Assembly: GCA_020718645.1 (NCBI GenBank)
Contig: DYRQ01000006.1
Span: forward strand, 1-53,316
DNA length: 53,316 nt
Direction of reading: 5' to 3'
Source: Verrucomicrobium spinosum
Lineage (GTDB): Bacteria; Verrucomicrobiota; Verrucomicrobiia; JADLBR01; JAIBCM01
The position numbers and the translations under genes were made by a program. Of the stretch, positions 8,901 to 53,315 are shown one piece after another (the stretch's first letter is position 1; each line of letters opens with the position of its first letter). A model generated the notes under the pieces. It was not told the origin of the DNA and ran no database searches. It saw only the letters and a program-made list of their open reading frames with translations.

Positions 8901-11900
8901 ATCGCTTGTCCACCGAGGGGGCACCCACTTGCACAGCAAACTGCGCCCCAACTTCGTAGTTATTCAGGCCAGTGTTATAAACTGGGAAAGTGTTGTCAGT
9001 GGCAGTCACACTAGAACCGTCACGGGCTCCATCAGCAGCTCCTGAAGCTCCTGGCGTGGAGGAGCCAGTTGTATTCGCACCACCCACGGTTCCCGTGCCA
9101 CCCGGCAGTGAGGCATAAGAAACCAGGACATTATTAGAGAGAATATCCCCAGAGATAGCGGCGTCGCCTAGCTTCGCTGTCACGGTCACTGTGATATTTT
9201 TCACAGCACCACCGATGGCAGCTACATCCGGGAGTGAATCAAAGGTCAAAGTGAATGAACCACCAGCACCGGCCGTTACAGTGCGCGCTGTTTCAGACAC
9301 GCCAACAGGAATATTGGTGCCAGCAGCCGAGGCCGTAACACTGACCAGCTCAATACCGGCAGGCAGTGTGTCGGCCACTGTGATGTTATAAGCTGGCATC
9401 TGCACGATGCGACGCCATTGCATATTAGTGCCTGCGACATCAGGACCGAGCACATTGGTGATGCTTGAATACATTCCGAAACTCTGTCCGGATAGAGTGG
9501 TTCCCTGCTGGATATAAACTTGGTAGCCCAGAGGTATCTCAGACGAGTTATCGAAATCCGACACACGACGCAGGCTCGCAGTGCCTGCCACAGCAGTGAC
9601 TTCGTAGATGCCATTCTGGGTTTGAGTGCTTTGATTTTTTATCAGCACGCGATCCCCAACCACGAGCGCCACGCTGTCCAGTGTGGTGGCGATACCTGTG
9701 ATGGTAGCCTGTGATCCTGCTGCGCCAGTGAAACCAGCCAAGTTAGCCGTAGTGGCCACTTTGACGGCAGTGGAGTTCTGCACGAGCGCGAAAGCAAGAG
9801 CTGTAGTGTTGAGCGTGACAGAGGCAGACTCTTGCAGGTAAACACGCCCTGAGTTCGTCGTGCCACCGCTCACGGCAAAGCGAGAATTATCAGTCACCTC
9901 GGCGTTTGCATCATAGTCAGGAGCACGATCGAGTATCACTGTATCCGTCTGTGCATCTACATAAAACACACGGTAAACACCGTTCTGAGTCCCTGTAGCC
10001 TGATCTTTGACCAGCACCCGGTCACCCGCGTTCAGAGAAACACCATCAATAGTGCGAGCAACCCCGGTAAACTGGCCTGTGCCACCCACTCCACTGGCAG
10101 CGTTGTAAGTAGCTCCTGTCAATGCTGCCGTGGTGGCAACCTGAACGGACGGAATACCTGTAATTTCAAAAACCGGCTGGTTGGAGAAAGTAATGGTATA
10201 AGTGAAAGTATCACCTCCGTCAGCAGGCAGAGCCGAGGTCACCTGCGTCTTCAGGTTAGTGATCTGTGGTTCGACTACATTGACAGACACACTGCCGACA
10301 CCAGACGCCAGCGCATCGTTGGCGGAGTTAGCTTTGATATCCACCGTATTTGTGAGAGCAACTCCCGCTTGGTTAGCTGCGACATTTTCTACCAATGCGT
10401 TAAATTCGATGATGATATATTCTTTGTCAGCATCATTGTCTGAATTAACTATATCGCCGAGTTTGAACTGAGGGTCTGTGCCGCTGACATACGAATCAGT
10501 GTTGACAGTCAGGCTTGTGCTGGATCCGATGTTAACATTACCGAGCACAACTGTCACCGCGACAGAGGTCGGGTCATCCACTGTAGCAGAGGCGTTGGGA
10601 TCTGCCTGCCATGGTCCATTGGCCAAAGCTAGAGCCAAGGTCGAACCAGTTGGCTCCGACGAAGTAATACCGTTGTTAGTATCCGAGACAAAGGCGATTT
10701 TAGTGGTTCCGTCGTTGATAAAACGCATGCCGGTTGGCAGGTTGTCGTCCACGATCAAATTGGTCGTTGTGCCTTCGGGGATTTCGATCTGGATGCGATA
10801 GCGGACTATTTCACCGATAGCCACAGTGTTCGTCGTGCCTGCTAACCCAGTGCCAGGCTCGGAGGTGGCAACAATGGTCTTGGTCACAGCAAAGTTCGCG
10901 GTATTGATATCAGCTACTTCAGTCTTGTTGACCTGCAAGTGATCGTATCCACCTTCTTTGCCTGCGTATTTTGTCAGAGAGGCCGTGTTCCGAATATAGG
11001 CATCGGTCGGTGTCTGCGCTGTGAAATAGTTAGGAGAAACATTGGAGGAGAGCGTCAACTCGTAGCTGACAATGACAAAATTGAAACCATCAGTCCGCTC
11101 ACTTGCATCCTGATTCAAACCACGATTCAAACCGCCCTGTTTGCTCTCGCCGCCATCCGCATCAGCGTAGTTATCTACCAGTTCAATCGAAAAGGTGTTG
11201 GCGCCATCATTCCATGTCAGATTGTAACCCACGCCATGCACGAGCGCCGTGCGATCGCCCCGTTGCACGACGAGGTTGGTCGCCGTGATAAACTGGTTGG
11301 CCGTCAGCGCACCGGGATCCACAAACTGAGCTAGGATAGTATCTTCAAAAGTAACATCGTAAGCATCGGAACGACCTGTATTGCCCACAATGAGGGCATA
11401 GCGGACTTTATCTCCGGCATCAGGAAGTGTTCCAGTAGTCAAGTTGCTGTTACTGAAAGTTGTGGCATCAGCCACGGCATCCATCACACCCGCAGTGACA
11501 CCTGTGCCAGCTCCGATAGCACCAAAGGTCAGCCCACCCAGAGTCGCTGATGCGATGACCCCAGCTTTTTCACTGGCAACGACACCCTTGTAAATTTCCA
11601 CATCAGGCTCATTGAGCACGATCTGGATGATCGAGTCTGCCACCTGTTTTGATCCGGGCGACTGAGTATTTTCTTCCTCTGAACGGACTTGGTTGGTCAG
11701 GTAAAGACCATCTGCAAACGGATCGTCATCCACCGTCACGGTGAACATGAAATCAGCCTTCAACTGGGTATTAGCACCGTAGTCGTAGTCTAGCCCCGGA
11801 TAGAAACGGAGACTGTTGTTCGTAGCATCCACTGACGCAACAGCCGGAGTGTGTCCACTGGCCGCTGTAAAAGTATCTGTAGAACCAAGAATGACATGTC

Positions 11901-17043: not shown

Positions 17044-18102
17044 CTACTTTTTCTTAGGCAGCATCTCAGGTCGAACTGTCACACGGTGCGTGGCCGTGCT
17101 CATTTCTTTCGGGGTCGCCAACTCGGGCATGTAATCCGGATCACGCGCGTTGCTCAACCGCCCAGTGTAGGGGCAATAGGCTCTCCACGCCCCGCCAACT
17201 TTATTCCAGTAGATGACTTGGGCCACCGCCGTCTTACCTTCCTCCAGACTCAAGAGCAGTCGTGCCGACGCCTGCCCTGCCACATCCCTCTCAGCAGAGA
17301 GCAGACGCACGCGGCTGCGAAGCGTGCCACCGGCAACAGGAGTGTAGAACAACTCAGTGCCCGATGGGAGCAAGTAGATTGGTGCAAGCCAAGGCTGTTG
17401 CACCACCCCCAGCGGGTCAAAATGTATTTCCCAATAGCCATCCTGCGCACCAGCACGAGCCAGCAGCTTCAGCTCAACACCTGATTCTGTCTTGTTCCAC
17501 TGACCCTCTGCCACGACAGCAGATCCACTCCCCCGGGCGTCCACGCGTTGGAACTCACGAATTTTAAAAGCGGCGCCTTGTTCTACATTCAAAATCGGGG
17601 CGCAGACAAAACCTGACCCATACTCCCATCGCGCGGTCTTCAGCTCGAGAGAAAGACGCAAAGAAGCTTTGGTGCCTCTCTGGCAGAGAGGTAATTCCGA
17701 CGCGGCCATGGATCCCCCCACGCTCACAGGTGAACCCGGCGAGGGTGCCACCCCCATGCGCCATTTTTCGAAACCTTCAAAAAGCAGGAACACCGTAGCG
17801 TCAAATTTCTTCGTCAGGTTGTTCGTGACCGTCACTGTAAAAGGCACACGATCCGCTTGGCTGACTCGAGAGACGGATCGGGTCACCTCCACCACAGCAG
17901 CAGCCAACTCGGTATCCTCATCCACCTGATCTGGATCGGGAACAGCAGGAGTCGGGGAGGGAGCCGCGCTTTCCGCAGGCACCAAGGATGCCGCCGTGGA
18001 TTCTGGTAACTCATCGCCACCGGTCTGGGCTAGCACGGGTGCAGCACCGCACAGGGCGGTTATCGCTATCCCAATCATTCTTCTAATAAATCGCGTTGCC
18101 AT
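17044..18102 (-). CDS. Hypothetical secreted protein
   Basis: 352-aa ORF filling the gap between GH31 and pheS; signal-peptide-like N terminus (IGIAITALCGAAPVLA), Pro/Glu linker, beta-rich body. No family recognised; the start could be 18078. Confidence 0.7.
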   Translation of the reverse strand: MATRFIRRMIGIAITALCGAAPVLAQTGGDELPESTAASLVPAESAAPSPTPAVPDPDQVDEDTELAAAVVEVTRSVSRVSQADRVPFTVTVTNNLTKKFDATVFLLFEGFEKWRMGVAPSPGSPVSVGGSMAASELPLCQRGTKASLRLSLELKTARWEYGSGFVCAPILNVEQGAAFKIREFQRVDARGSGSAVVAEGQWNKTESGVELKLLARAGAQDGYWEIHFDPLGVVQQPWLAPIYLLPSGTELFYTPVAGGTLRSRVRLLSAERDVAGQASARLLLSLEEGKTAVAQVIYWNKVGGAWRAYCPYTGRLSNARDPDYMPELATPKEMSTATHRVTVRPEMLPKKK

Positions 18103-26786: not shown

Positions 26787-29700
26787 ATGCCGACACTACC
26801 CGCATCCCGATACAGTCTAGTATTCCAAGTCCTTTTTTTCGTTGGCTTGGGCTGTATCGGATGGCTCACGGCTGACTGGCGGCAAGACTCCGTGGATGCC
26901 GAGATGCGAGGTCGCATCTTGCGCACGGTCGAAGATTTGGCCACGGCCATCCCCCCTCAATCAGCACTGGCTTTGACCTTCACGGCCGATGACAAGTTCA
27001 GGCCCCAGTTTGACCAGATTGCAGTTCTGATGCAGGACTATTCCAAAAGCATCCCCAACAGCGGCATCTACAGCATGGCCATGCGGGATGGCCGTATTGT
27101 TTTTGGTCCGGAAACTTATCCAGAAAATAGCCCGATGGCTTCTCCGCCTGGTTCTCTCTACCTAGAGCCAACCGCAACAACTCTCCAGATTTTCCAAAAT
27201 AAAAAAGCCTGTGTCCAAGGCCCCTACAAAGACGAGTTTGGCTCGTTCATCTCGGGCATGGCTCCTGTCTTACACCCTGAGACAGGGGAGGTGATCTGTG
27301 TGGTCGGCCTCGATGTAGAGGCCTGCTACTATTTGGCTCGGCTGGAGAGAATCCGCCAAGGCGTCTTGGGTGCTTTTGCCGCTTTCGTTGCTATCGTTGC
27401 ACTCGCCCGAGCCACTCTCACCTGGCTCTCGAAAACAACCGCCGGACAAGAACCCAAAAAAGTTTTAATTCTCACGGCTCTCCCTCCTATTGTAGCAGGA
27501 ACAACCATCCTCTGGCTCACTCTACAGTTTTGGGATCTTCAGAAACACACTCAACAAGAGCAGCGCACAAGCACACGCCTGCTGGAACTCAATGGCCGCA
27601 TCCTGTATTACGACGAGGTCACAGCCTTTTCTTCCAAATGGAGTATTCTCACTGGCAAAGAAGGCCAGGGAGGCAACCTCCCCCTCGAAGATCGTTACCG
27701 CCGGCACCGCATTCTACTGCTCGACGCCTTGATTCAGCTCAAAAAACTGCTGCCAAAGTCTTCGCGCATGCAGAACGCTTCTCTCAAGGACACTTATGAC
27801 CGTCTGGACGAACTGCGCCAAGAGGCTTTTGACTTGCTCAAAAGCGGCGATAAGCAGGCTGCGCTGCGGCTGATCACTGGCTGCGAATACCGCCGACACT
27901 CTGAAGCCGTTGCCTCTCTGCTCAGACAGCTAGCCATTGAGATTGAGACGAATCGACATCAAGTGCTCGACGAACTCAGCAACAACCTCCACCAGGTGTT
28001 TGCAGCCCTGCTTGGCGTGTTGCTCTCTCTGTCCATGTTCTGGAGACGCTGGCTAGAGGCGGAGAAAACTGCCCGCGAATCCACCCAGAAAGCACAGCTT
28101 GAACTCAAGCAAAAAATTGAAGAAGCCACCGCTGCTCTCCAGCTAACTAATCGCGATCTCGCTGAGCGGGACGAACGCCTCACCCTGACGCTCGACTCCA
28201 TCAACGAGGCTTTTATTACGAGCAATGAGCAAGGTTTGATTATCGCTTGGAATAAGGCAGCCGAACAGATTTTCGGATGGAGTGCCGCAGAAGCCATCGG
28301 CCAACCTCTTTCCATCATTATCCCCTCTCGCTACCGAGCCAGGCACGAGGAAGGAATGTCTCGTTACCGCAATATGCGGACGACAAAGGTTGCCGGCCAA
28401 TTACTCGAAGTCGAAGGCACCCGCAAGGATGGGAGCGAATTTTCGATGGAGTTGACCGTGAGCCCCTGGGAGAGATATGGCAGCCTATTCTTCACCAGCG
28501 TCGCCAAGGATGTATCCGAGCGAAACAAGACCAAAAATGAACTGCGAAAGCTGAGTCGCGTAGTCGAACAAGCTCCCGTGCCGATCGTAATTACCGACTG
28601 TCAAGGCATCATCGAATATGCTAATCCAGCAACAGCGCAGACTACAGGCTACAGCCTGGAGGAAATCCTTGGAGGCACTCCGAGAATCTTCAAGTCGGGC
28701 ATCTCTCCCGACTCGGTTTATAAGGAGATGTGGGAGACCCTCATGTCAGAGCGCGAATGGCGCGGAGAGATGGCCAACAGGCGAAAAAATGGTGAGTTCT
28801 ACTGGGAAATCGTCACTATTTCCCCCATCAAAAACGACGCGGGAGAGACCACCCACTTCGCCTCGGTCAAACAAGATATCACAGAACGAAAATTGGCTGA
28901 GGAACACCTGCTCCAAGCCAAAACTGAATCCGATGCAGCCAACTTGGCAAAAACCCAGTTTCTAGCTACCATGAGCCATGAACTCCGCACGCCGCTCAAC
29001 GCGGTTCTGGGATACGCCCAAATATTGCTGCGAGAGCACCAGTCAGATGCCAAGACCAGCCGCGCCCTCACCACTATCCTCCGATCAGGTGAACACCTTC
29101 TCTCGCTGATCAACGATGTCCTCGACATCTCCAAAGTCGAAGCCGGCCGGGTCGAATTATTTCCCAAGAATATCCACTTGCACGACTTCCTCGACAACAT
29201 CTGGGCTTTAATCAAACCACGGTTCTCAGAGAAAAAATTAGTGGGTCGAATCGTCCGCGATGAGACGCTCCCTGAAGGCATCCAAGTGGACGAGCAGAAG
29301 TTACGGCAGGTGCTCCTCAACCTCTTGGGCAACGCAGTCAAATTCACGGACAAAGGCTCCATCGAACTCCGGGCACTCTGCCAAGGCGGGCGGCTGATCT
29401 TCGAAATCCAAGACACTGGCCCTGGCATCGCACCCCAAGATCTCTCCACTATTTTTGAGCCATTCCAGCAGGTTGGCTCCATAGAACGGCGCGCCGAGGG
29501 ATCTGGCCTAGGGTTGGCCATCGTCAAGCGAATCCTCTCTCTCATGTCCGGCTCTGTCCAAGCTTCTTCTATCCTTGGCCAAGGCAGCCTTTTCACAGTA
29601 GATATCCCCTTGGTTCCAGTAACGCTGGATCCCAGCGCTATGTCGTCCCCTGTTACCCACTGCCACCCACAAGGCTACGAAGGCCCTCGCAAGAAAATTT

Positions 29701-30341
29701 TGGTCGTGGATGACAAAACCGAAAACCGTAGTTTACTGATGGATCTCTTGCAGCCTCTCGGCTTCGAAATACGCCTGTGCGACAGCGGCAACCGCGCGAT
29801 CGAGACTGCCAGCATCTGGCAACCGCACCTCATCTTTATGGACCTGCGCATGCCCAGTATAGACGGCCTAGAAACCACCCGTCTGCTGCGCAGCTCCATT
29901 CTAGGACCCGGCGTCAAAATCATAGCTATTTCCGCCAGTGCTTTTGATTTGGATCAAGCCGACTGCCTCCAGGCAGGCTGTAATGATTTCCTACCAAAAC
30001 CATTCAAAGAGCAGGCGCTCTTCGATATGATTTCAAGGCACCTCGGCATCACTTGGAATACTGCCCCTCAAACTCAACAGCTTGACCGGCCCATCCCTGA
30101 TTTGGAGTGGGATCCCGGCCACGCCCTACCCAGCAAAGACCAACTCTCCCATCTGCTCGACCTCGCTAAGCGCGGTAATCTCAAACAAGTCGGCGAGCAG
30201 GCAGCCTCCTTGGCGCTGGAAAACCACAAACTCCAGCCGTTCTCGGACAGGGTCGCTAACTTGGTCTCTTCCTACAAAATCAAACTGTTGAAAGAATGGA
30301 TTGAATTGCTGATCAAAACTAATAAAAATAACCCTTTATGA
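26787..30341 (+). CDS. Hybrid sensor histidine kinase (two extracytoplasmic domains, 2 PAS, HisKA, HATPase_c, REC)
   Basis: H-box FLATMSHELRTPL, N-box LLNLLGNAVKFT, DTGPGI, GSGLGL, REC ILVVDD...FMDLRMP...KPF; PAS motifs IIAWNKAAEQIFGW and IEYANPA. Confidence 0.95.
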   Translation: MPTLPASRYSLVFQVLFFVGLGCIGWLTADWRQDSVDAEMRGRILRTVEDLATAIPPQSALALTFTADDKFRPQFDQIAVLMQDYSKSIPNSGIYSMAMRDGRIVFGPETYPENSPMASPPGSLYLEPTATTLQIFQNKKACVQGPYKDEFGSFISGMAPVLHPETGEVICVVGLDVEACYYLARLERIRQGVLGAFAAFVAIVALARATLTWLSKTTAGQEPKKVLILTALPPIVAGTTILWLTLQFWDLQKHTQQEQRTSTRLLELNGRILYYDEVTAFSSKWSILTGKEGQGGNLPLEDRYRRHRILLLDALIQLKKLLPKSSRMQNASLKDTYDRLDELRQEAFDLLKSGDKQAALRLITGCEYRRHSEAVASLLRQLAIEIETNRHQVLDELSNNLHQVFAALLGVLLSLSMFWRRWLEAEKTARESTQKAQLELKQKIEEATAALQLTNRDLAERDERLTLTLDSINEAFITSNEQGLIIAWNKAAEQIFGWSAAEAIGQPLSIIIPSRYRARHEEGMSRYRNMRTTKVAGQLLEVEGTRKDGSEFSMELTVSPWERYGSLFFTSVAKDVSERNKTKNELRKLSRVVEQAPVPIVITDCQGIIEYANPATAQTTGYSLEEILGGTPRIFKSGISPDSVYKEMWETLMSEREWRGEMANRRKNGEFYWEIVTISPIKNDAGETTHFASVKQDITERKLAEEHLLQAKTESDAANLAKTQFLATMSHELRTPLNAVLGYAQILLREHQSDAKTSRALTTILRSGEHLLSLINDVLDISKVEAGRVELFPKNIHLHDFLDNIWALIKPRFSEKKLVGRIVRDETLPEGIQVDEQKLRQVLLNLLGNAVKFTDKGSIELRALCQGGRLIFEIQDTGPGIAPQDLSTIFEPFQQVGSIERRAEGSGLGLAIVKRILSLMSGSVQASSILGQGSLFTVDIPLVPVTLDPSAMSSPVTHCHPQGYEGPRKKILVVDDKTENRSLLMDLLQPLGFEIRLCDSGNRAIETASIWQPHLIFMDLRMPSIDGLETTRLLRSSILGPGVKIIAISASAFDLDQADCLQAGCNDFLPKPFKEQALFDMISRHLGITWNTAPQTQQLDRPIPDLEWDPGHALPSKDQLSHLLDLAKRGNLKQVGEQAASLALENHKLQPFSDRVANLVSSYKIKLLKEWIELLIKTNKNNPL

Positions 30342-31450
30342 CCGACCCATCTCCCACCATCCTCCTTGTGGATGACACCTCGGCTAACTTGGGTGTCTTG
30401 GCAGAAATGCTGGAAGTGTCCGGCTATCAAACCCGTGTGGCTGAAGACGGTGCCAGCGCCCTCGAACAGATGGAATTCGGACTGCCCGACTTAGTTTTAC
30501 TGGATGTTATGATGCCGGGCATTGACGGCTTCGAAACCTGTCGGCGACTAAAAAAAGATAATCGTTTTTCCTCCACGCCAGTTATTTTCATGACCGCCTT
30601 GGCGGAAACCGGCTACAAGGTCCTAGGGTTCGAGGTCGGTGCAGTGGATTACATCACCAAGCCTTTCCAGCATGAAGAGGTTTTGGCTCGGGTGCGCACC
30701 CACCTGGAAATTGTCCGTCTCAGGAAAAATCTCGAGCAACAAAGCGCCCTGAAAGACCGCTTTATGCAGATCGCTGCCCACGACTTGCGCAACCCTCTCG
30801 CCTCTATCCAACTTGCAGGCGATCTCCTCCTCGATATGCTGGGCGATTCATCTTCCCCAGAAGAAATGATCCCCATAGCAGCAGGCATCGCTAAAGCCTC
30901 CCGCAGGATGAACGAGATGATCGGCAGCTTTCTCGACTACCGAAAAGCGGCTGCCAACCGTCTGGATGTCCAGATTACCACGCTCGACCTGCCTGCCCTC
31001 TTAGCCTCTGTCACCGACAACCACCAATCTCTAGCAGACAAGAAAAAGATAGCGCTGGAAACAAGTATCCCAGATAACCTTCCCCTCTGCTCTGGTGATG
31101 AAAACCGCAGCCACCAGATCATCACCAACCTCGTCAGCAATGCTGTAAAATACACCCCCACCCGAGGCCGCGTTTCCCTCAGCCTACTCCCAGAAAATCA
31201 CCATCTCAAACTCGTTGTAGCCGATACCGGCCCAGGCATCCCTGAAAACGAAAGATCCAAGCTGTTTACTGAATTTGCTTCTATCTCGACTTCACCGACT
31301 GGTGGAGAACAGAGCACGGGAATCGGTCTCTGGATTGTGCGAAAAATGGCTCAAGCTCAAGGTGGAGAATGTGGAGCAGATTTCCCTCCCAGTGGCGGAT
31401 CGGCATTCTGGGCAACATGGCCGCTGTCTCTCCCTGCAGCCCAAACCTAG
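30338..31450 (+). CDS. Hybrid response regulator/histidine kinase (REC-HisKA-HATPase_c)
   Basis: ILLVDD, LLDVMMPGIDG, ITKPF, AAHDLRNPL, NLVSNAVKYT, DTGPGI, GIGL; ATGA overlap with the upstream kinase. Confidence 0.93.
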   Translation: MTDPSPTILLVDDTSANLGVLAEMLEVSGYQTRVAEDGASALEQMEFGLPDLVLLDVMMPGIDGFETCRRLKKDNRFSSTPVIFMTALAETGYKVLGFEVGAVDYITKPFQHEEVLARVRTHLEIVRLRKNLEQQSALKDRFMQIAAHDLRNPLASIQLAGDLLLDMLGDSSSPEEMIPIAAGIAKASRRMNEMIGSFLDYRKAAANRLDVQITTLDLPALLASVTDNHQSLADKKKIALETSIPDNLPLCSGDENRSHQIITNLVSNAVKYTPTRGRVSLSLLPENHHLKLVVADTGPGIPENERSKLFTEFASISTSPTGGEQSTGIGLWIVRKMAQAQGGECGADFPPSGGSAFWATWPLSLPAAQT

Positions 31451-31536: not shown

Positions 31537-31788
31537 CTAAAACCCAATCGGGATCGCCTCGTCTTTCAAAAGCACAGGAATGCCATCCCTGATCGGATAA
31601 ATATATTTCTCGTCCGCCCTCACCAAGCCGCTTTCGATTTTATCCCGAACCGGTTTTCCCCCGCGATTGTTTTGGACTCCATTGGTGATGGCTCGATTGA
31701 TGGCACTAATCTGCACCGGATGAGCCACCATGAGTTCTTCATGGTTGTCAGGGCAGCACAGCATTTTCAGAAGCGTGGCGTCTATCAT
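31537..31788 (-). CDS. Trm112-like protein (YcaR family)
   Basis: LLKMLCCP at the N terminus and YPIRDGIPVLLKDEA at the C terminus; start moved to 31788. Confidence 0.88.
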   Translation of the reverse strand: MIDATLLKMLCCPDNHEELMVAHPVQISAINRAITNGVQNNRGGKPVRDKIESGLVRADEKYIYPIRDGIPVLLKDEAIPIGF

Positions 31789-31918
31789 GCCCTCCATTCT
31801 CCCCCCATGCAGCCGCCTCGACAAGCCAGAAACACCGCTCACACCCCATCCTCCTCAACCTTGTAGTTGTGATTGTCAACGGCACCATCCTAATGCTATG
31901 AATCAGCATTGAAGTGTT

Positions 31919-34900
31919 TTGAACTCTGAAATCTACATCCATCAGGAGGGGCAAGACCTCGGTCCATTTACTCTGGAAGAGCTGACCGAGGCCGTTGTTG
32001 CGGGCATGGTTCAACCTGACGAATGGGCCTACACAAAAGACGGTGCCGACTGGGTCTCCGTCCTCTCCATGCTCCCTCCAGACACTGCCGCTTCGGTGCC
32101 CCGCGCTACCTCTGCCGGTGTTCCCGTTATCCTCCCTCCTCCGTCTCAACCACGGCCTGTTCAGAAAATCGTTGAGTTCGACAAAGTCGAGCCCCCCCTA
32201 GATGCCATCAAACAGCCCATACCCCACTCAGCTTCTGCTGGAGGCAAAAGACAGGCCGATAACCCGACACATCCCGAAACTATTTCGGATTCCAGCTTAG
32301 CAGCCCTGATCATCGAACCACCTGCTGAAACGCCCACACAGCTCGATACTCAGAGAGAAATCACTCCCCACACGCCACAACCCCAGCCACCTCCCCAGAG
32401 CGTTGCACAGCCCGACAAAGCTCGCCACGAACTGGAACTCCGCGCCGCTGACTTGGACGCCAGCATCGAAAAAACTCAGGCAGAAAACAGCGCCCTCCAG
32501 AAAGAGCAAACCGCTGCCACCGAAGCGCTCGATGCCCTCAAAGCTAAGATTGCCTCCCTCGAAAAAGAACTCGCCGAGGAGACCGCCAAGCTGGCTGAAG
32601 AACGCGATCGCACGGCTGCCGTGACCGGCAAGGAAAGCGACAAAGAAGATCTCAAAAAACGAATCCGCACCTGTGAAACTGAGATTTCGGAAATCAAGCG
32701 CCTGCGAGGCGAACTCACGGCCACGCGCGAGGCAACAGCTAACAAATCCGCTCAAATCCGAAAACTGAAAGACCAGTCGGACGAGGCCTCCGCCAAAGCC
32801 ATGGCGGAACGAGACGCCCTCAAATCTGAGCTGGAAACCACCCAGCGCATGATCGCGGATTTCGAGGAAACCAAACGCCTCATCTCGGTCAATAAAAACT
32901 CGGTTTACAAGCTGCAGGTGGAGCGGGAGGAAATGCTCGTCCGCATTGCCCAAGCTAAGGAAATCCTTCAGAGACGCCCAGAAGTGGACCAAGAATTAGC
33001 TTTGGTCAAACAGCAGGTGGCCGAAAAGGAAACTCAGCTCGCTTCTGCCACAGAAGAAATCCTCTCCATCCAGTCAAAACTCGGCGAACTCGAGGAAGTT
33101 CGCCTCAAAATCGAAGCTGAGCAAGCCACCCTCGCCACTGTCTCAAATAACGAGCGCCAAGCACAGTCCGAACTCGATCAAGCCCAAGCAAAACTCGCGG
33201 AACTCGAGTCGGAGAAAAAACGCCTTGCAGAGCTTCACACCGAGGAGTCCACACGCACAGCCACTATCCTCGCCCTCCGCTCGGATCTCCAAAAAACGAT
33301 ACAATCCCAAGAGGCAGCCCTCGCTGACATCGGAGCAGAACAGGTTGCCATCGAGACCGAACTCGCCGAAGTCGCTGGCATCCGCTTGTCCATAGACGAG
33401 ACACGAAAAAAACTCGATTCCGTCAGCAGGCAAAAAGACGAATTCGACAAACACCTCGAATCGCTCAAAGAAAAATTGATCGAGGCTCCCACCATCCGAG
33501 AAGCTCGAGATGCCGTGCGCGAACAGCTTCGCAAAACCGAGCAAGAACGCGCCTCGGTCATGGAACAGATCGAAATTGTGGATACCCAGCTCGCTGAGCT
33601 CAACCGCCACAAAATCGAGTTGGAAGAAGAAAAACGCGCTCTCGATAATCTCCGCCGCTCCGTCGCAGAACTCCGCGATACCGCCTTGCGCAAAGAGGAT
33701 GCTCTGGCCGAAGGCTCAGAAATCCGGCTTCGCCTCGCTGACAACAAAGTCCAGCTCGAGCAGAAGCTCAAAGAGAAAGATGTTACTTGCCTCCAGATCG
33801 CCGCCCTCGACGAACGGCTCAAGACCCTCGAAACCCTGAAGGCTGATTTGCTCGAAAGCAGCACTTCCCTGCAAAAAGCTCTCGACGCTCAAGCGGAACT
33901 CCGCAGCAGAGTGGATCAGGCTGAACGCCAGCTTGCCACAGGCGCCGACATCTCACGCCAGCTCGAACACAACCTCTCTCTCGAACACCAGTCCCAAGCT
34001 GTCAGCTCCGCTCTCCAGCGCCGCCTCGATAATCTCAACGACGGCCTCGGCTCCCTCGAGGCCCAGAGAGTCACTCTCACCCAAGTCGAACACCGCGTCT
34101 CAGAAGCCCGCCGCGCTAACGAAGAGCTTCAGTCCAAGGTGCAGGCTGCAGCAGCTCGCCTAGTAGAAAAACCAGAAATCGAAAGCCGCGTGGCCGACGG
34201 CCAACGGGAATTCGACCGCCTCACGGCAGAGAACGAAAACTTCGTGGCTCGCATCGCCTCTCTGGCCACCGAGCAGGAACAGCTCCAGCGCAACCGGTCC
34301 CACTTGGCAGCGCTCGACGAAGAGCTCCGTGCGATCAAATCCGAATCCGCCGCTCTCCAAACCAAAGCTCTCTCTCTCCAAGGAACTCTCTCGGATAAAG
34401 AGCCCATCGAGGCTGAGATTCGTGATCTCCACACCCAAATCGAATCTACCCGATCTGAGACTGCTTTTGCCGTAGCCAAGCTCAATGAGACCCAGACGCG
34501 ATCCGATGATCTCGCACTGAAAAAACAAGTGCTCGAACGCCTCCAAGTCGAACTATCCTCTGCTGAGCATGAGAGGCTCGAGACTCAGACGCAGCTCACC
34601 AACCTACAAGCTTCCCTCGCTGATTTCGATGCTGTCCGTGCTCGGTGCGACTCCCTGCGCGAGCAACTGGACAACGCCCGTTCCGTGGTCTCCGCCTCCT
34701 CCGCCCAGCTCGACGCTCTCAAAGACCGCTCCGCTGAGCTTGAGCGCATGCAGCAAGAACTTCTCGACCTCGAACAAGAACAGCGCCGCATGGAAACAGA
34801 TCGCGCCCAATCCGAACACGCTGCCAACCACCTCCGCCTGCAGCTCGAACAAGTCGAGGATGTCCGCACGCAGCTCGCCACCACCACAAAACAAACCCAG

Positions 34901-35374
34901 TCCCAGCGCGACGATCTCTCCCGCCTCCTCTCCCTCAACCAAGATCAGGCCAACAAACTCAAAGCCGAGCGCGACACCCTCAACGAACGCATGCGCAGCA
35001 TGCAGGATCAGATGCAGGAAATCGAAAACATCAAAGCCCAGCAGACGGCCTGCCTCGAGGATATTACCCGCTGCGACCGCGAGATTACCTCCATCAAATC
35101 CCGCATCGCCGAGTCGGAAATCCAGATCACCGAGATGGACCAGGTCCGCCGCCAACTCGCAGAAACCCAAGCTCAGACAGCCAAGACCTCGCTCGCCCTC
35201 CAAAAACAGCTTGCTGAACAGGACGCACACAACCGCAAACTTGAGTCGGCACGCGACGCTCTTCGCCAGCAACTGGATGCCACCCAAAAAGAGGTCGGCT
35301 ACTTCACTGGCTTGAAAAAACAGATGGCCGACGCCCACCGCTCCACCACGATTCTCGAGTCGGAAAAACGCTAG
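31919..35374 (+). CDS. GYF_2 (DUF4339) domain protein with a very long periodic coiled coil
   Basis: IYIHQEGQDLGPFTLEEL...GMVQPDEWAY...DW (GYF_2), Pro-rich linker, then about 980 aa of E/Q/L/A/K/R-rich helix; TTG start; no TM or signal peptide. Confidence 0.85.
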   Translation: MNSEIYIHQEGQDLGPFTLEELTEAVVAGMVQPDEWAYTKDGADWVSVLSMLPPDTAASVPRATSAGVPVILPPPSQPRPVQKIVEFDKVEPPLDAIKQPIPHSASAGGKRQADNPTHPETISDSSLAALIIEPPAETPTQLDTQREITPHTPQPQPPPQSVAQPDKARHELELRAADLDASIEKTQAENSALQKEQTAATEALDALKAKIASLEKELAEETAKLAEERDRTAAVTGKESDKEDLKKRIRTCETEISEIKRLRGELTATREATANKSAQIRKLKDQSDEASAKAMAERDALKSELETTQRMIADFEETKRLISVNKNSVYKLQVEREEMLVRIAQAKEILQRRPEVDQELALVKQQVAEKETQLASATEEILSIQSKLGELEEVRLKIEAEQATLATVSNNERQAQSELDQAQAKLAELESEKKRLAELHTEESTRTATILALRSDLQKTIQSQEAALADIGAEQVAIETELAEVAGIRLSIDETRKKLDSVSRQKDEFDKHLESLKEKLIEAPTIREARDAVREQLRKTEQERASVMEQIEIVDTQLAELNRHKIELEEEKRALDNLRRSVAELRDTALRKEDALAEGSEIRLRLADNKVQLEQKLKEKDVTCLQIAALDERLKTLETLKADLLESSTSLQKALDAQAELRSRVDQAERQLATGADISRQLEHNLSLEHQSQAVSSALQRRLDNLNDGLGSLEAQRVTLTQVEHRVSEARRANEELQSKVQAAAARLVEKPEIESRVADGQREFDRLTAENENFVARIASLATEQEQLQRNRSHLAALDEELRAIKSESAALQTKALSLQGTLSDKEPIEAEIRDLHTQIESTRSETAFAVAKLNETQTRSDDLALKKQVLERLQVELSSAEHERLETQTQLTNLQASLADFDAVRARCDSLREQLDNARSVVSASSAQLDALKDRSAELERMQQELLDLEQEQRRMETDRAQSEHAANHLRLQLEQVEDVRTQLATTTKQTQSQRDDLSRLLSLNQDQANKLKAERDTLNERMRSMQDQMQEIENIKAQQTACLEDITRCDREITSIKSRIAESEIQITEMDQVRRQLAETQAQTAKTSLALQKQLAEQDAHNRKLESARDALRQQLDATQKEVGYFTGLKKQMADAHRSTTILESEKR

Positions 35375-35407
35375 CACACCAGTCCGCTAGGAATCCTCGC
35401 TGGTTGC

Positions 35408-47177: not shown

Positions 47178-49280
47178 CTAAACTGCATCCCAGTAAACGC
47201 GCAGTTCTCGCGGGCCGAGGCCGTGGATCAGAATCTCGAGGCCGTGGAACTGTTCGTCAAAGGTGAAGTGTATCCTGTGTCCATCCAGTAAAACGCAAGA
47301 TGGCCTGCGGTCGCTCCACGCCAAAAATCGGCCTCCCCAGCGCAGGTGGACGACGCAAACACCGTGAATATCAAACTCCTTGCTCGTGACTACCCCAGCG
47401 CTGTTGAACATGTCCGGCAGTCCGATAGGGGCAAAACCGTTTTCAATCGGCACTACCGTCACCACTTCGGCTTGGCGGGGTGCCAGGCTGATCTCGCGTT
47501 GCTCTTCGAGCACCATCTCCAACAATTCTGTCGTGTGATGACAATAGACAGCCAATCTCTCTCCCTCCAACCCCTCGACATCCTGCGGGGAAAATACTGC
47601 CTGCAGGTTCGTGGACGAAGCCTCCCCCGCTCCCTGCTGGCAGTGGAATATCCCGATGACACCAGACCTCAAGTTGCGGTTGAAAATCTTGTAAAGCACC
47701 GGGTCTGTCGTGGGATTGACGAAGAGACAGTCGCGAGTGGGTAGCGCGGGATCCGCAGGACGCAAGACCTCACCACTAGGGAGCACCAGCTTGGCCAAGA
47801 GCGCAGCATCATGATGTCCCGGCTTGTCAGAAACATAGACCGGCCCACCAGAAAGAGCTCTGGCTACGGCATGCAGATTGGCTGCTTCGTGCTGGGTCTG
47901 AAACATGTCCCAATCCGGGTGCACAAACTCCCCAAACCAGAGTGAAAACAGGGCGTTGTTAAAAATATGTTTGCCGTGCGACTCGGCTTTGTCGGGATAA
48001 TAATCTGGAGAGGATCGGTAAAGCACTGTGCTGGCCGAATGATAGATTAGCTCGGCGGGGTGAGCCATGCAGTGGATCACATTACCCTCGAGATGCACAT
48101 GGACAGCTCCCTCGACGGCTTCGCGCATCTTGCGGGAGACTGAGACACGCCCTCCGTGGTCGGCTGTGTAGGCTTCTAAGTAGCCTTGCCCATCCAGCTT
48201 CAATCCATCCACACCACAGCTACGCAGGTAGGCGGCGTTATCATGAAAAAAACGGTAGGCATCGTCCGGATGCACTATCTCGCGGGCGCAGGCCTGGCGA
48301 GGATTGAACCGGCGCGCTGCCCGGATGCTATCGCTGAAACGCCCCTCTGTTCGGGCAAAACGATACTGCGGGAACTCATGGGCCTCCGCCCCTCCCCAAT
48401 ACCCGAAGAGGGCTTGCCAGACGAGCAGGTAGCGCAATCCGTAGGTTTGCTTGCTAGCCCATGAAAGCCCAGCCAATCCACCAGGAAACTTCTCATTGGC
48501 CTCCCACGCCGTGAGGACGGACGGCGTATTTTCTCCACAAGGACGAACGCTCTGCCAACCGTCATCGAGCACGAGAAAAGCGGGTGCTCTCCCCGCCGCC
48601 GCCAGAGATGCGAGACCCGATAGCACCCCCTCTTGAGATACCTCAGTGTAAAATGCGTCCCAAGTACACCAGCCGAATAGCTCTGCAAATGCGGGCACTT
48701 TTTTATCCCGCCGCAAGCGCACGGTCCCACAGCTCCCAGCCACTTGTTTAGCTGCTGCTTGGATCAGCAAATAAGGATCATATCCCGCCGCAACATAAAG
48801 CCCTGTGACTTGCGGCAGACAGGCGCCATCCTCGCCTGAATCAGCATAGATTTCGAGACGATCTAAGTCGTTGCCCCGAATGGAACAGGGGTAAGGACCA
48901 TCCACCAGAGATACCAGCACGAAGTAGCCGCCAGCCCCAAGGGTTCCGATCAAAAAATAAGTTTCGTAGGGAATGTCCCACGACCGGGTTCCCGTAAATG
49001 CCTCCATCCAGGCAGGCTCAGTGCGGGCGCATCCGCAAAACTGAGTATGAGCACCAAGACACCCACACTCGAGCAAATGTCGGGAGGCAAGAGGAAGATG
49101 GTTCCAGCGGAGAAAAACACCAGTGCCAGCCGCATCCACTGACGCCGTCACCTGAGAGGGCAGCCGATTCAGCAGAACTGCACCACACCATGAGAGGCTG
49201 CCGTTTGTGAAGCCGTAGGGAGCAGCAACTCCCGACGAGTCGGGCTGGAACTGAGGCCGGCTCTCACCGGCATCATTCAC
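47178..49280 (-). CDS. Raffinose synthase/Sip1-like alpha-galactosidase (GH36)
   Basis: FGWCTWDAFY, LVLDDGWQ, DGLKLDGQ, RSSPDYYP, PDWDMFQT, ALSGGPVYVSDKPG. The GTG start at 49280 overlaps the FHA gene stop (GTGA). Confidence 0.92.
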   Translation of the reverse strand: MNDAGESRPQFQPDSSGVAAPYGFTNGSLSWCGAVLLNRLPSQVTASVDAAGTGVFLRWNHLPLASRHLLECGCLGAHTQFCGCARTEPAWMEAFTGTRSWDIPYETYFLIGTLGAGGYFVLVSLVDGPYPCSIRGNDLDRLEIYADSGEDGACLPQVTGLYVAAGYDPYLLIQAAAKQVAGSCGTVRLRRDKKVPAFAELFGWCTWDAFYTEVSQEGVLSGLASLAAAGRAPAFLVLDDGWQSVRPCGENTPSVLTAWEANEKFPGGLAGLSWASKQTYGLRYLLVWQALFGYWGGAEAHEFPQYRFARTEGRFSDSIRAARRFNPRQACAREIVHPDDAYRFFHDNAAYLRSCGVDGLKLDGQGYLEAYTADHGGRVSVSRKMREAVEGAVHVHLEGNVIHCMAHPAELIYHSASTVLYRSSPDYYPDKAESHGKHIFNNALFSLWFGEFVHPDWDMFQTQHEAANLHAVARALSGGPVYVSDKPGHHDAALLAKLVLPSGEVLRPADPALPTRDCLFVNPTTDPVLYKIFNRNLRSGVIGIFHCQQGAGEASSTNLQAVFSPQDVEGLEGERLAVYCHHTTELLEMVLEEQREISLAPRQAEVVTVVPIENGFAPIGLPDMFNSAGVVTSKEFDIHGVCVVHLRWGGRFLAWSDRRPSCVLLDGHRIHFTFDEQFHGLEILIHGLGPRELRVYWDAV

Positions 49281-49780
49281 GAGAAGAGCATCCTGAAGAG
49301 CATGAAGCCAACGCTCAAGACAGCCAACGAGCCCAACCCCCAAGTGATCCATTTAGCAGGCGAAGCCTCCGCATCTGAAATACGACGGCCCAAGGGAGAA
49401 GTATTCTTGAAGTCGGCTGGACGCACGCTGGTATTGGAAGGATTGAGAGGCAGCCCTCGCACGGCTTCCGGCAAAGGCATCGCATCTCCACCTACCTCTG
49501 AATCATAGAGAAATACGATATTGCCAAACTGCACCATGTCGCCCCGCGTGAGCTTCTGCTGCATGACCTTCGTGCCATTGACTCTGGTGCCATTGGTGGA
49601 GTTGAGATCTTTGACATTATAATCGCCATCCACATTCGTCAGCACGGCATGGCGTCCCGAGACACTCCCATGCGCTACACACATTGGATTTTCTGGAAGT
49701 CTGCCGAGATGCATCTCGGCCTCGGTCAACTCAAAGGTGACTTCCTGAAACTCGGTGGTCTGTCCGATCAAACGCGGCAT
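49277..49780 (-). CDS. FHA-domain protein with C-terminal TM helix
   Basis: LGR...SVSGRHA...DLNSTNGTRVNG (phosphothreonine-binding residues intact); C-terminal WITWGLGSLAVLSVGFMLF. Confidence 0.92.
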   Translation of the reverse strand: MPRLIGQTTEFQEVTFELTEAEMHLGRLPENPMCVAHGSVSGRHAVLTNVDGDYNVKDLNSTNGTRVNGTKVMQQKLTRGDMVQFGNIVFLYDSEVGGDAMPLPEAVRGLPLNPSNTSVRPADFKNTSPLGRRISDAEASPAKWITWGLGSLAVLSVGFMLFRMLFS

Positions 49781-53243: not shown

Positions 53244-53315
53244 GCCGGCTTAGCTCAGTGGTAGAGCAACGGTTTTGTAAACCGTCGGTCATCGGTTCGA
53301 ATCCGATAGCCGGCT
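53244..53315 (+). tRNA. tRNA-Thr (anticodon UGU)
   Basis: Cloverleaf: acceptor GCCGGCT/AGCCGGC, D arm GCTC-AGTGGTA-GAGC, anticodon stem ACGGT-TTTGTAA-ACCGT, T arm ATCGG-TTCGAAT-CCGAT. The base after the discriminator is T, so CCA is not encoded. Confidence 0.97.

Follow-up and report, generated by a model that had tools for sequence, protein, structure and literature searches.

The window, the whole stretch of DNA analyzed (53,316 nucleotides), belongs to a soil Verrucomicrobiota bacterium and carries a coding sequence at 31919..35374 for a protein of 1151 aa (ORF list); all parts of this coding sequence described below lie on the + strand. The frame starts with TTG at 31919, the sole start that retains a complete GYF domain, with an in-frame TGA upstream at 31910-12, and ends with a stop codon at 35372-35374. 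The open reading frame proposed in a first-pass annotation is real: the CDS was recovered by independent assembly from metagenome runs, at ~25-30x, and across independent metagenome samples the 3.4-kb frame was intact and identical except for one SNP (33418 T>G) causing a conservative D500E substitution. The GC3 of the gene resembles that of its neighbours, and none of the RNA runs checked showed its expression. Around it lie genes for two-component kinases, a Trm112-like protein and an M42 peptidase, chromosomal housekeeping surroundings that give no clue to function. A distinct RR-HK gene is found upstream, at 30338-31450, and no Glt, Agl or MglA genes were found within the window.

The N-terminal GYF_2 head (31934..32062; residues 6-48, folded unit about 1-57) was delimited using Pfam PF14237, AF2 and Foldseek. 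Residues 6-48 matched PF14237 with an E-value of 2.8e-6 and 27.4 bits, above the gathering threshold of 25.8, in agreement with the domain first named from the sequence. AF2 modelling of the head and linker (10-row alignment) gave a pLDDT of 86-92 for residues 1-50 and a bb-a-bb-a fold. The best Foldseek match was the GYF domain of Myxococcus xanthus GltJ (7z3c, E 6.3e-4), followed by those of Smy2, GIGYF and CD2BP2; matches 1, 4 and 6-16 were all GYF domains. The head is thus a member of the GYF fold both by profile and by fold superposition. Among 1.84e9 representatives, the sole matches to the protein fell on this head. The view that bacterial GYF_2 domains are uncharacterized is outdated, since the NMR structure of the GltJ domain has been solved and its ligand is the proline-rich sequence of AglZ, a coiled-coil protein (PMC11135422).

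The head is followed, as had been noted, by a Pro-rich linker (32081..32443; residues 55-175), predicted to be disordered, with 19% Pro and the motifs PPP and PQPQPPP. Its pLDDT was below 55 in both AF2 runs. In the monomer model of head and linker, the linker was disordered and undocked from the GYF head, which argues weakly, and not decisively, against tight binding in cis.

The remainder of the protein is a helical rod of ~980 residues (AF2 helix 166-1143), although the AF2 monomer model is of low confidence (pLDDT 57, pTM 0.28). The rod composition (23% LIVMF, 35% charged) is coiled-coil-like, unlike that of a single alpha-helix. Opposite-charge pairs are in excess at i to i+3 (86) and i to i+4 (87) against 60 ± 6.5 expected, a helix-favouring design. 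The N-terminus is non-hydrophobic, with a maximum KD19 of 0.76, and a motif scan confirmed the reported absence of Walker A, transmembrane segment and signal peptide from the protein, and likewise found no hinge or CxxC. Given the lack of a signal peptide or transmembrane segment, the protein is best read as cytoplasmic.

The N-terminal rod (32444..32965; residues 176-349) is helical and heptad-like with a weak or degenerate register. The AF2 helix runs from 166 with a break at 235-238, the 38/11 phase is low and drifting, and matches to the unit profile do not exceed 3 bits. Three 38-residue units starting at 350, 388 and 426 (32966..33307) follow, with motif scores of 3-4 of 5 and a proline, P354, at unit position 5. 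They form a second in-phase block (38/11 phase 0.02-0.09 at residues 361-437), and residues 388-444 scored 10.4 bits against the unit profile. An 18-residue spacer (33308..33361; residues 464-481; QEAALADIGAEQVAIETE) widens the unit spacing from 426 to 482 to 56 residues. Across it the phase steps from ~0.05 to ~0.87, a register offset of ~0.2 turn, and residues 350-463 obey the 38/76 register after the 18-residue offset. The core periodic block (33362..34957; residues 482-1013) consists of 7 x 76 aa, or 14 x 38 aa. The C-terminal rod (34958..35371; residues 1014-1151; AF2 helix 996-1143) is helical and made mostly of plain heptads, with a constant heptad phase of 0.55-0.58 over residues 1007-1064 and weak unit resemblance (profile matches ~2 bits).

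The periodicity was analyzed by several methods. In BLOSUM autocorrelation of residues 171-1151 the top lags were 76 (z 9.5) and 38 (z 8.1). Stacking at a period of 76 gave a z of 9.7, whereas none of 12 alternative periods, among them the in-phase 69 and 83, exceeded 3.7. A leave-one-out unit profile gave +9 bits when placed in register; shifted by ±38 it gave -10 to -16, and at all other placements -21 to -68. The 38/76 period reported earlier therefore exceeds chance by autocorrelation, stacking and leave-one-out profile alike. In the block 482-1013 the seven 76-mers scored 70-83 bits each and aligned without gaps (MAFFT). Amino acid identity between 76-aa units was about 17.6-17.8%, compared with about 11-13% in in-phase controls, and that of the 38-aa half-repeat was weaker, at 13.3%. 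The true sequence repeat is 76 aa, and 38 is a weaker half-repeat. As claimed before, there is no repeat identity at the DNA level: TRF found no relevant tandem repeat, and 228-nt units were 38% identical (34% at codon position 3). Nucleotide identity is at background and yet the register is kept, which indicates selection on structure.

The extent of the register had been overstated. Of the ~840 residues said to be in strict register, ~532 (482-1013) are strict and ~115 more are plausible; units 312, 1032, 1070 and 1126 gave weak or ambiguous matches. Similarly, the five-position motif ascribed to 21 units is fully present in just two of them (596 and 1070). Partial matches are nonetheless enriched: at least three of the five positions were matched in 18 of the 21 units and at least four in 10, whereas the corresponding frequencies over all rod positions were 4.8% and 1.2%.

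Each 38-mer has 11 core positions (1, 4, 7, 11, 14, 18, 21, 25, 28, 32 and 35) with a single 3-3 spacing, and is composed of five heptads and one three-residue stammer at L1-x-E3-L4-x-x-I7-R8. Because each half is built in this way, the hydrophobic seam has a periodicity of 38/11 = 3.4545 residues per turn and not 3.50. This stammer basis is a new point beyond the first-pass annotation, which had set its proposal against a signal of heptads only. In the block 482-1013 the hydrophobic power was 52.1 at 3.4545 and 0.6 at 3.50. The whole-rod Fourier peak was at 3.46 (power 61), and the 38/11 phase stayed flat (0.81-0.96) over ~520 residues while the heptad phase precessed by about two turns. The rod does not hold 3.50 along its length, as a canonical heptad coiled coil would; with its AF2 helix and single coherent stripe at 3.4545, it is a coiled coil in the broad sense. 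A heptad comb was also present in the autocorrelation (lags 7, 14, 21, 38 ± 7 and 76 ± 7), and the rod is therefore heptad-based with regular insertions rather than heptad-free. Basic residues had a separate period of 7.6 residues (38/5; power 11.3), which is moderately significant only.

Helix breakers were found at the places given earlier. Pro or Gly occupies positions 4-6 of alternate (B-type) units in 5 of the 7 B-units of the block, and all four rod prolines (354, 524, 752 and 829) sit at unit position 5-6; the P value for three Pro within a 2-residue window of the 76 register was ~0.001. Three of these prolines mark putative hinges at B-type stammers: Pro524 (codon 33488..33490; unit 520, position 5; AF2 helix break 521-525), Pro752 (34172..34174; unit 748, position 5; break 749-751) and Pro829 (34403..34405; unit 824, position 6; break 824-827). 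Polar core positions give specificity in two-stranded, in-register coils, and core position 25 is mostly polar (K/R/N/Q/S/T in 11 of 14 units). The g to e' charge pairs are non-complementary overall (9 attractive, 9 repulsive), and only E3-R8 is complementary (6 versus 2). Leu prevails at a, not at d, with a beta-branched tendency at d, and the classic parallel-dimer pattern is absent. Non-heptad coiled coils nearly always have a periodicity above 3.5. The range accessible to coiled coils is 3.33-3.9, and stammers are rare, single and regarded as strained (PMC4786415).

Searches of 1.84 billion representatives, PDB, genomes and metagenomes found no homologues of the rod, and no orthologues of the protein were found in databases, genomes and metagenomes. 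As proposed before, the protein belongs to no known family, and nothing matches along its length, the only similarities being sub-threshold arm matches to SMC, Rad50, SbcC, LmuB and JetC. Several families were considered and rejected. For SMC/Rad50/SbcC/MukB-like proteins, the N-terminus is a GYF domain without Walker A, and NCBIfam scores were 5-10 times below the cut-offs and confined to the arms. An SMC-type hinge or CxxC zinc hook was rejected, as there is no CxxC or globular insert and the phase is constant mid-rod. A spectrin unit has ~100-110 residues, with three helices, two loops and a conserved Trp. The earlier term spectrin-like does not fit a 76-residue period in which each repeat has one helix breaker or none, nor a rod that lacks Trp, and neither Spectrin nor EzrA was matched in Pfam or NCBIfam. 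In the case of a phage tape measure, the sole PHROG match was the SbcC-like phrog_77 arm, the neighbours are housekeeping genes, and tblastn against 50,697 phage records gave no match. Lag 51, expected for a Scy/FilP-type repeat, was outside the top 25 lags, and there was no homology; the 38-residue unit excludes an SF-assemblin-type 29-residue unit. The N-terminal receiver domain of AglZ is absent, as no Response_reg match was found in the protein; a Pro-rich stretch with a ~1000-residue coiled coil behind it is shared with AglZ.

From the observed domain order, period, phase coherence, proline placement and absence of homologues, the protein was read as a lineage-restricted, cytoplasmic, GYF-headed scaffold with an overwound, segmented coiled-coil rod; the whole statement is given a probability of about 0.45. 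Its architectural part, a GYF head and tether followed by a stammer-based helical rod segmented at 38/76, is probably correct. It supports the earlier description of a head for interactions at the N-terminus and, behind it, a long coiled-coil rod that is segmented and non-canonical. The three parts would be a GltJ-type GYF adaptor, a disordered Pro-rich tether of ~120 residues and an alpha-helical rod of ~980 residues, up to ~145 nm long if extended. The chains would associate in parallel, probably as two strands, in a left-handed coiled coil wound more tightly than one made of heptads. At 3.62-3.64 residues per helical turn, the geometry is estimated to give one supercoil turn per ~68-76 residues, about one super-repeat, so that an identical face would recur every 5.6 or 11.2 nm. 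Stiff rod segments of ~11 nm may be linked by the Pro/Gly hinges. By analogy with GltJ-GYF and AglZ, the head would bind a proline-rich sequence, supplied by a partner or by the linker of a second molecule. Such a protein, with its regularly spaced binding faces, could act as a long tether or scaffold, or build up a self-associating fibre as its subunit; a role as an enzyme or SMC-type machine is disfavoured on this reading.

A stronger version, in which the coil is uniformly overwound at 38/11 for more than 500 residues with a pitch equal to the 76-residue repeat, and binding of the GYF head to its own or a neighbouring tether drives polymerization or switching, is doubtful. It would join the GltJ-AglZ link in a single gene and represent a novel sort of scaffold or cytoskeletal fibre for Verrucomicrobiota. 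The equality of pitch and repeat may be wrong because the isolated stammers described so far are accommodated locally, in a short stretch of 3-10 turns, with no uniform overwinding (PMC4786415).

An unlikely but possible alternative is an IF-like cytoskeletal protein of the crescentin/FilP/Scy kind, which would self-assemble laterally and longitudinally with a 5.6/11.2-nm stagger into filaments or striated cables. The head-rod layout and the very long coiled coil with a long-period, non-heptad repeat agree with it, and there is a bacterial precedent in Scy/FilP (Walshaw et al., 2010, as cited in PMC3718342). The Pro-rich head and regularly interrupted coiled coil of SF-assemblin make striated fibres (PMC2119799), and the 7.6-residue basic period (power 11.3) could encode the stagger, although the charge periodicity is only moderately significant. 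However, the searches linked the protein by sequence to none of the IF-like or CCRP families, and IF-like proteins are not known to have a GYF head.

The rod might instead fold back on itself, as an SMC-arm-like antiparallel hairpin or as stacked 76-residue helices connected through the Pro/Gly sites, giving a shorter, thicker bundle and not a 145-nm rod. The breaks at each 76 residues are possible turn sites, the a/d preferences and the lack of complementarity in the g-e' pairs suit antiparallel or higher-order assemblies no less than parallel dimers, and the arms of SMC, Rad50 and SbcC show weak profile similarity. This is nonetheless improbable: Pro or Gly is missing from two of the seven B-units, there is no ATPase head, hinge or zinc hook, and the autocorrelation at lag 152 (z 5.0) falls short of that at lag 76. 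Two-sided packing needs two hydrophobic stripes, whereas one stripe of constant phase was found.

Two further readings are very improbable. A role as molecular ruler or spacer, in which some dimension of the cell follows from the number of repeats, would agree with an integer count of equal 11.2-nm modules and regular hinges, but there are no orthologues in which repeat number could be correlated with any dimension and no linked structural genes, and this reading is indistinguishable from a generic scaffold. The absence of homologues and of expression in RNA runs would suit a fast-evolving orphan ORF with little or no function, its periodicity a residue of old tandem duplication; against this, the 38/76 register is exact and gap-free over 532 residues despite background nucleotide identity, the core positions, the E3/R8 pair and the proline placement are all kept, the frame is intact in independent samples bar the one conservative SNP, and GC3 is neighbour-like. 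That the protein belongs to an established family of long helical proteins, whether SMC/Rad50/SbcC, EzrA/spectrin-like or phage tape measure, is effectively refuted, since the matches (ASRP 78.9 bits, cut-off 300; SMC 59, cut-off 567; SbcC-like phrog_77, E 5e-10; LmuB, E 1e-7) are confined to coiled-coil arms, with the ASRP and SMC scores far under the curated cut-offs, and there is no Walker A, transmembrane segment, PDB sequence match or phage tblastn match in these housekeeping surroundings.

The gene is a single orphan, its genome is of the uncultured type, and its product is a candidate scaffold or cytoskeletal element of Verrucomicrobiota, about whose cell biology little is known. It would extend the only characterized bacterial GYF interaction beyond Myxococcus. 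A natural rod with at least 14 stammers, each exactly 38 residues from the next, would probe the limit of sustained left-handed overwinding and would reveal how Pro/Gly hinges ease stammer strain. Protein designers could take it as a model for rods that carry their own 5.6/11.2-nm ruler.

Among known systems, tropomyosin is a two-stranded rod with a period of ~39-40 residues over heptads, which presents equivalent faces to a periodic partner; it differs in its unbroken heptad phase (3.5) and lack of prolines, and has no homology to the rod. Scy and FilP of Streptomyces are likewise very long bacterial coiled coils; their repeat, too, is non-heptad and of long period, and they act as scaffolds or in the cytoskeleton. 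Their repeat is reportedly 51 residues and hendecad-rich, with a periodicity above 3.5, whereas the repeat here is 38/76 with a periodicity below 3.5; they lack a GYF head and show no sequence relation. In SF-assemblin and beta-giardin a Pro-rich, non-helical head precedes a fixed number of heptads with one regular discontinuity, and the sequence drifts while its 'sequence principle' stays (PMC2119799). The 29-residue unit of these proteins, four heptads and a one-residue skip, is almost straight (29/8 = 3.63) (PMC2119799), unlike the overwound 38/11 = 3.45 unit; they are eukaryotic and microtubule-associated, with no homology. The isolated stammers of MITF/TFE, L1ORF1p and the OMP100 stalk have the same three-residue insertion and local 3-3-4 (decad) spacing (PMC4786415, PMC6954422, PMC5940361), but occur singly or in small numbers and not in a long, evenly spaced succession.

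In its domain order the protein resembles a fusion of GltJ-GYF with the proline-rich and coiled-coil portions of AglZ, the two partners of the bacterial focal-adhesion pair of M. xanthus. AglZ consists of a receiver domain, a proline-rich sequence and a long coiled coil, its ~100-residue proline-rich stretch lying directly before a coiled coil of ~1000 residues, as here, and the GYF/proline-rich contact with GltJ was demonstrated experimentally in that system (PMC11135422). The receiver domain, ZnR domain and transmembrane segment of that pair have no counterpart in the present protein, and the AglZ rod is likened to it by description alone. Structurally, its head has the bacterial-type GYF fold and is nearest to GltJ-GYF 7z3c, and GYF head, proline-rich stretch and rod are here united in one polypeptide.

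In the ORF listing of the window, the gene for the rod protein is one unbroken ORF at 31919..35374 (+), encoding 1151 aa from a TTG start. TTG 31919 is the sole start that spares the whole N-terminal domain, because the next ATG (M30) cuts into the GYF domain and an in-frame TGA lies three codons 5' of the TTG. The DNA of the gene is real; its GC and GC3 are similar to those of the adjacent genes, and the locus was covered about 25-30x by contigs from soil and biofilm metagenome runs, with no indel and no joint. The single difference in these contigs over the locus was 33418 T>G (GAT>GAG, D500E, unit position 19), fixed in runs X1 (soil metagenome, 2012) and X2 (biofilm metagenome, 2014) and present also in a further run, X3. 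X1 and X2 gave contigs of the same lengths over the locus (6201 and 2765 nt) at similar depth, and the longest record was 62301 in both; they hold one and the same strain and are possibly the same material deposited twice. RNA-seq evidence was sought for the rod gene, and no RNA run was listed. The ORFs of 209-257 aa listed on the opposite strand within the gene, at 32297-32992, 33235-33864 and 34604-35377 (all (-)), are shadow ORFs and not genes to annotate, because the rod gene is compositionally biased and rich in GAR/CTN codons.

Autocorrelation of the rod was computed with BLOSUM62 over residues 171-1151 and compared with 300 shuffles. The highest values were at lag 76 (z 9.5) and lag 38 (z 8.1), followed by a heptad comb (21, 31, 69, 83, 7 and 14). 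Since any coiled coil scores at heptad-compatible lags, identity was compared with in-phase lags only; it was 17.8% at lag 76, 13.3% at lag 38 and about 10-13% at other in-phase lags. At a period of 76, stacking of residues 482-1013 (nt 33362-34957, the block) had a column-information z of 9.7; none of twelve other periods exceeded 3.7, and the seven 76-mers of the block aligned without gaps (MAFFT, alignment A2). In a leave-one-out profile test, the omitted unit averaged +9.0 bits in register, against -10 to -16 at a shift of 38; shifts that kept the heptad phase gave -21 to -35, and those that broke it -40 to -68. Because of the lag identity, the stacking, the gap-free alignment and the leave-one-out test, the rod sequence is a repeat of 76 residues with a weaker 38-residue half-repeat, far beyond chance. 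Between units, DNA identity is no higher than background (38% overall and 34% at third codon positions), and no tandem array was found in the gene by TRF; the duplication is therefore ancient, as a first-pass annotation made from the sequence alone had proposed. That the units have diverged deeply and yet kept register speaks for structural selection rather than decay.

The same annotation had put the strict 38/76 register at about 840 residues. By profile and phase, the register is proven over 532 residues and plausible over about 115 more, and the remainder is not shown to follow it. The unit profile recovered seven units within 482-1013 (70-83 bits apiece), and the sole region beyond the block to reach 10 bits was 388-444. 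The local phase of the 38/11 wave was 0.81-0.96 between about 475 and 990 and 0.02-0.09 at 361-437, an offset of about 0.21 turn, as predicted by an 18-residue spacer. From about residue 1007 onwards the rod reads as an ordinary heptad pattern; N-terminal to about 345 there is little signal. The 21 units listed earlier as matching (L/I)x(E/D)xxx(I/V/L)(R/K)xxL fared unevenly: all five positions were matched in two, and at least three of the five in 18, against 4.8% of rod positions. Ten of the 12 rod positions that scored at least 4 on the motif belong to that list.

Hydrophobic columns were found at positions 1, 4, 7, 11, 14, 18, 21, 25, 28, 32 and 35 of the 38-residue unit (n = 11), with core spacings of 3-3-4-3-4-3-4-3-4-3-4. 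The unit amounts to five heptads with an additional step of 3 residues; Brown, Cohen and Parry termed such a step a 'stammer' (summarised in Hartmann et al., PMC4786415), and it is located at the conserved unit start L1-x-E3-L4-x-x-I7-R8. Because the unit holds eleven core positions, the Fourier peak of the hydrophobic indicator over the whole rod was at 3.46 (power 61) and not at 3.50. Within the block the power was 52.1 at 38/11 = 3.4545 and 0.6 at 3.50, which upheld the 38-residue period against a heptad-only signal. Fourteen even, same-direction phase slips of 1/7 turn make up the two cycles that separate the 38/11 and 3.50 frequencies. Stammers raise left-handed supercoiling, the periodicity of nearly all known non-heptad coiled coils is above 3.5, 10/3 is regarded as the lower limit, and every stammer solved to date stands alone, taken up by a short 3-10 segment (PMC4786415). 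No description of a 38-residue coiled-coil repeat was found; the full-text matches for the phrase were globular desmoplakin repeats only.

The two halves of the 76-residue unit differ at the stammer. A-type units have Leu at position 4 in 6/7 and a helix that is predicted to be uninterrupted, and B-type units of the block have Pro or Gly within positions 4-6 in 5/7. The rod of 976 residues contains four prolines (354, 524, 752 and 829), all at unit position 5 or 6; the three block prolines would fall into one 2-residue window of the 76-residue register with a chance probability of about 0.001. Residues 166-1143 were predicted to be helical in a full-length AlphaFold2 (AF2) model built with no alignment (pLDDT 57), which was taken for helix and break positions only and not for tertiary packing; its breaks at 353-355, 521-525, 749-751 and 824-827 match the rod prolines. 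In 11 of the 14 units, position 25 is polar although it formally belongs to the core. The rod looks like a chain of helical segments, each about 76 residues (about 11 nm) long with a 'hard' stammer in mid-segment, and joined to the next at 'soft' stammers that would also act as hinges.

The rod has a composition of E14 A13 L13 Q9 R9 and a strong excess of opposite-charge pairs at i->i+3 and i->i+4 (86 and 87, against 60±6.5). A single-alpha-helix domain was rejected, as just 35% of residues are charged, 23% are LIVMF and the hydrophobic stripe is strong. Basic residues and net charge in the block (33362-34957) have a period of their own at 7.6 residues (38/5; power 11.3), distinct from the hydrophobic 38/11 period; this charge period might specify a binding stripe or the stagger in an assembly. 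Walker A, CxxC, a TM segment and a signal-like N-terminus were all absent from the rod protein, whose features are those of a cytoplasmic protein.

GYF_2 was detected at residues 6-48, over the Pfam gathering threshold. Residues 1-57 were modelled by AF2, with a 10-row alignment of the sole detectable relatives, as a bb-a-bb-a unit (pLDDT ~90). The top PDB match of the head was the NMR structure of the M. xanthus GltJ GYF domain (7z3c, E 6.3e-4), followed by eukaryotic GYF domains. The linker (residues 55-175) is 19% proline, including PPP and PQPQPPP, and was predicted to be disordered in both AF2 models. In most bacterial GYF proteins the domain is N-terminal with a membrane module behind it; the GltJ domain binds a proline-rich sequence of AglZ (receiver, proline-rich sequence and long coiled coil), and gliding-motility focal adhesions are assembled (PMC11135422).

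Word-indexed searches with the full length, the seven-unit 76-mer profile and the head alone returned nothing. An exhaustive phmmer search of 1.84 billion representatives gave nine weak matches, all to the GYF head (residues ~3-80) and none to the rod. The matched proteins are small and carry 2-4 GYF_2 domains in tandem, proline-rich linkers and often a C-terminal TM segment (seen in several of them); each GYF copy is followed by a conserved 'LLP...' and a proline-rich spacer. P0008 alone among them hints at a GYF-plus-helix layout elsewhere, through a short and highly charged helical tail at its end. The contigs carrying these proteins are too short for gene context. Searches of the PDB by sequence (full length and 76-mer profile) gave generic coiled coils only, at E above 0.006; no rod relative was found in a GTDB genome scan, a JGI metagenome scan or a phage tblastn, and neither the rod protein nor the neighbouring M42 peptidase had an exact sequence match on record. 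As judged by these searches, the rod gene is an orphan at present sampling depth, and the GYF head is the only part of the protein that can be assigned to a family.

Membership of known rod families was assessed by their defining features. A secreted M-protein-like fibril was dismissed for lack of a signal peptide and an anchor. The defining features of tape-measure proteins failed, in line with the phage search, as did those of SMC/Rad50: the NCBIfam, PHROG and PADLOC matches (ASRP, SMC, Rad50, SbcC, LmuB and JetC) were to coiled-coil arms only and lay 5-10 times under the curated cut-offs. Those of spectrin and EzrA failed as well, and the 'spectrin-like' part of the first-pass reading was not borne out.

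The window has the content of a bacterial chromosome (PriA, PheS, RF1/PrmC, UvrB, fumarase and CarA). The M42 peptidase gene lies 34 bp 3' of the rod gene, and its product is 61-64% identical to homologues of Verrucomicrobiota/Chthoniobacter MAGs, which makes a member of the Verrucomicrobiota the probable source of the window. The rod and M42 genes may share a transcript, as prediction placed no + strand terminator in the gap. Seven M42-anchored loci (48-64% identity; Verrucomicrobiota/Chthoniobacter MAGs and metagenomes) contained no long coiled-coil ORF. Directly 5' of the rod gene stand genes for a PAS-HisKA-HATPase-receiver hybrid kinase (26787-30341 (+)) and a receiver-HisKA-HATPase protein (30338-31450 (+)), which overlap by 4 nt. 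AglZ, for comparison, has a receiver domain ahead of its proline-rich stretch and rod. A small divergent Trm112p-like ORF (31537-31842 (-)) lies 76 nt from the rod-gene start, leaving scant promoter space. The two kinases, the Trm112-like protein and the M42 peptidase give no functional hint for the rod protein, and the window ORFs of at least 250 aa showed no Glt/Agl/Mgl, MreB, FtsZ or BtubAB genes. Elsewhere, a 2760-aa ORF with DUF11, SdrD_B-like and bacterial alpha-2-macroglobulin MG10 domains (5950-14232 (-)) adjoins an outer-membrane efflux gene (TolC-like, OEP; 4116-5924 (-)), and together they suggest a giant adhesin, or a secreted surface protein, and the partner for its export. A 352-aa ORF between a GH31 glycosidase gene and pheS (17044-18102 (-)) had no Pfam match at E <= 1e-5. 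A protein of the raffinose-synthase/Sip1 family, best known in plants, is encoded at 47178-49352 (-) (E 7e-128). The only RNA gene found by Rfam and ARAGORN in the window was tRNA-Thr (TGT), at 53244-53315 (+).

The first-pass observation is confirmed in part, strongly so for its core, with the extent and the strictness of the motif put too high. Its interpretation is supported in part: the segmented non-heptad coiled coil with an interaction head holds, and a cytoskeletal or ruler role is conjectural. The rod chains would associate into a homo-oligomeric coiled coil, for which a parallel two-stranded form is the simplest; this is consistent with the lone hydrophobic stripe, with one polar 'a' layer in each unit and with the conserved E3(g)-R8(e') pair. 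Oligomer state and orientation are not fixed by these features, because overall complementarity of the interchain g-e' charge pairs is absent and Leu prefers 'a'. If the stammers were delocalised, a 38/11 seam on a helix of 3.62-3.64 residues per turn would give one supercoil turn per 68-76 residues; by this arithmetic the pitch would roughly match the 76-residue super-repeat and present equivalent faces every 5.6 or 11.2 nm. The most economical mechanism would be an elongated scaffold or tether with a head that docks on a proline-rich ligand, for which GltJ and AglZ provide a bacterial precedent (PMC11135422). Candidate ligands would be a partner, the tether of another copy (forming a chain or network) or the protein's own tether. 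AF2 on head plus linker gave no docked pose of the linker on the head; that model lends no support to autoinhibition by such cis binding, which may nonetheless occur.

The protein was rated a putative coiled-coil-rich scaffold whose 38/11 stammer-based register had not been described before and whose GYF-plus-rod architecture is unusual; it is structurally unusual and testable, and is encoded by a single orphan gene. The SF-assemblin/beta-giardin unit is four heptads plus a skip (29 residues) behind a proline-rich head, and its principle is kept while the sequence drifts (PMC2119799). The rod protein belongs neither to this type nor to Scy/FilP, although it resembles both, the latter in their long-period rods. 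Unlike most bacterial GYF proteins it has no membrane module, and compared with the GltJ/AglZ pair it joins a GltJ-like head to an AglZ-like proline-rich stretch and rod in a single chain.
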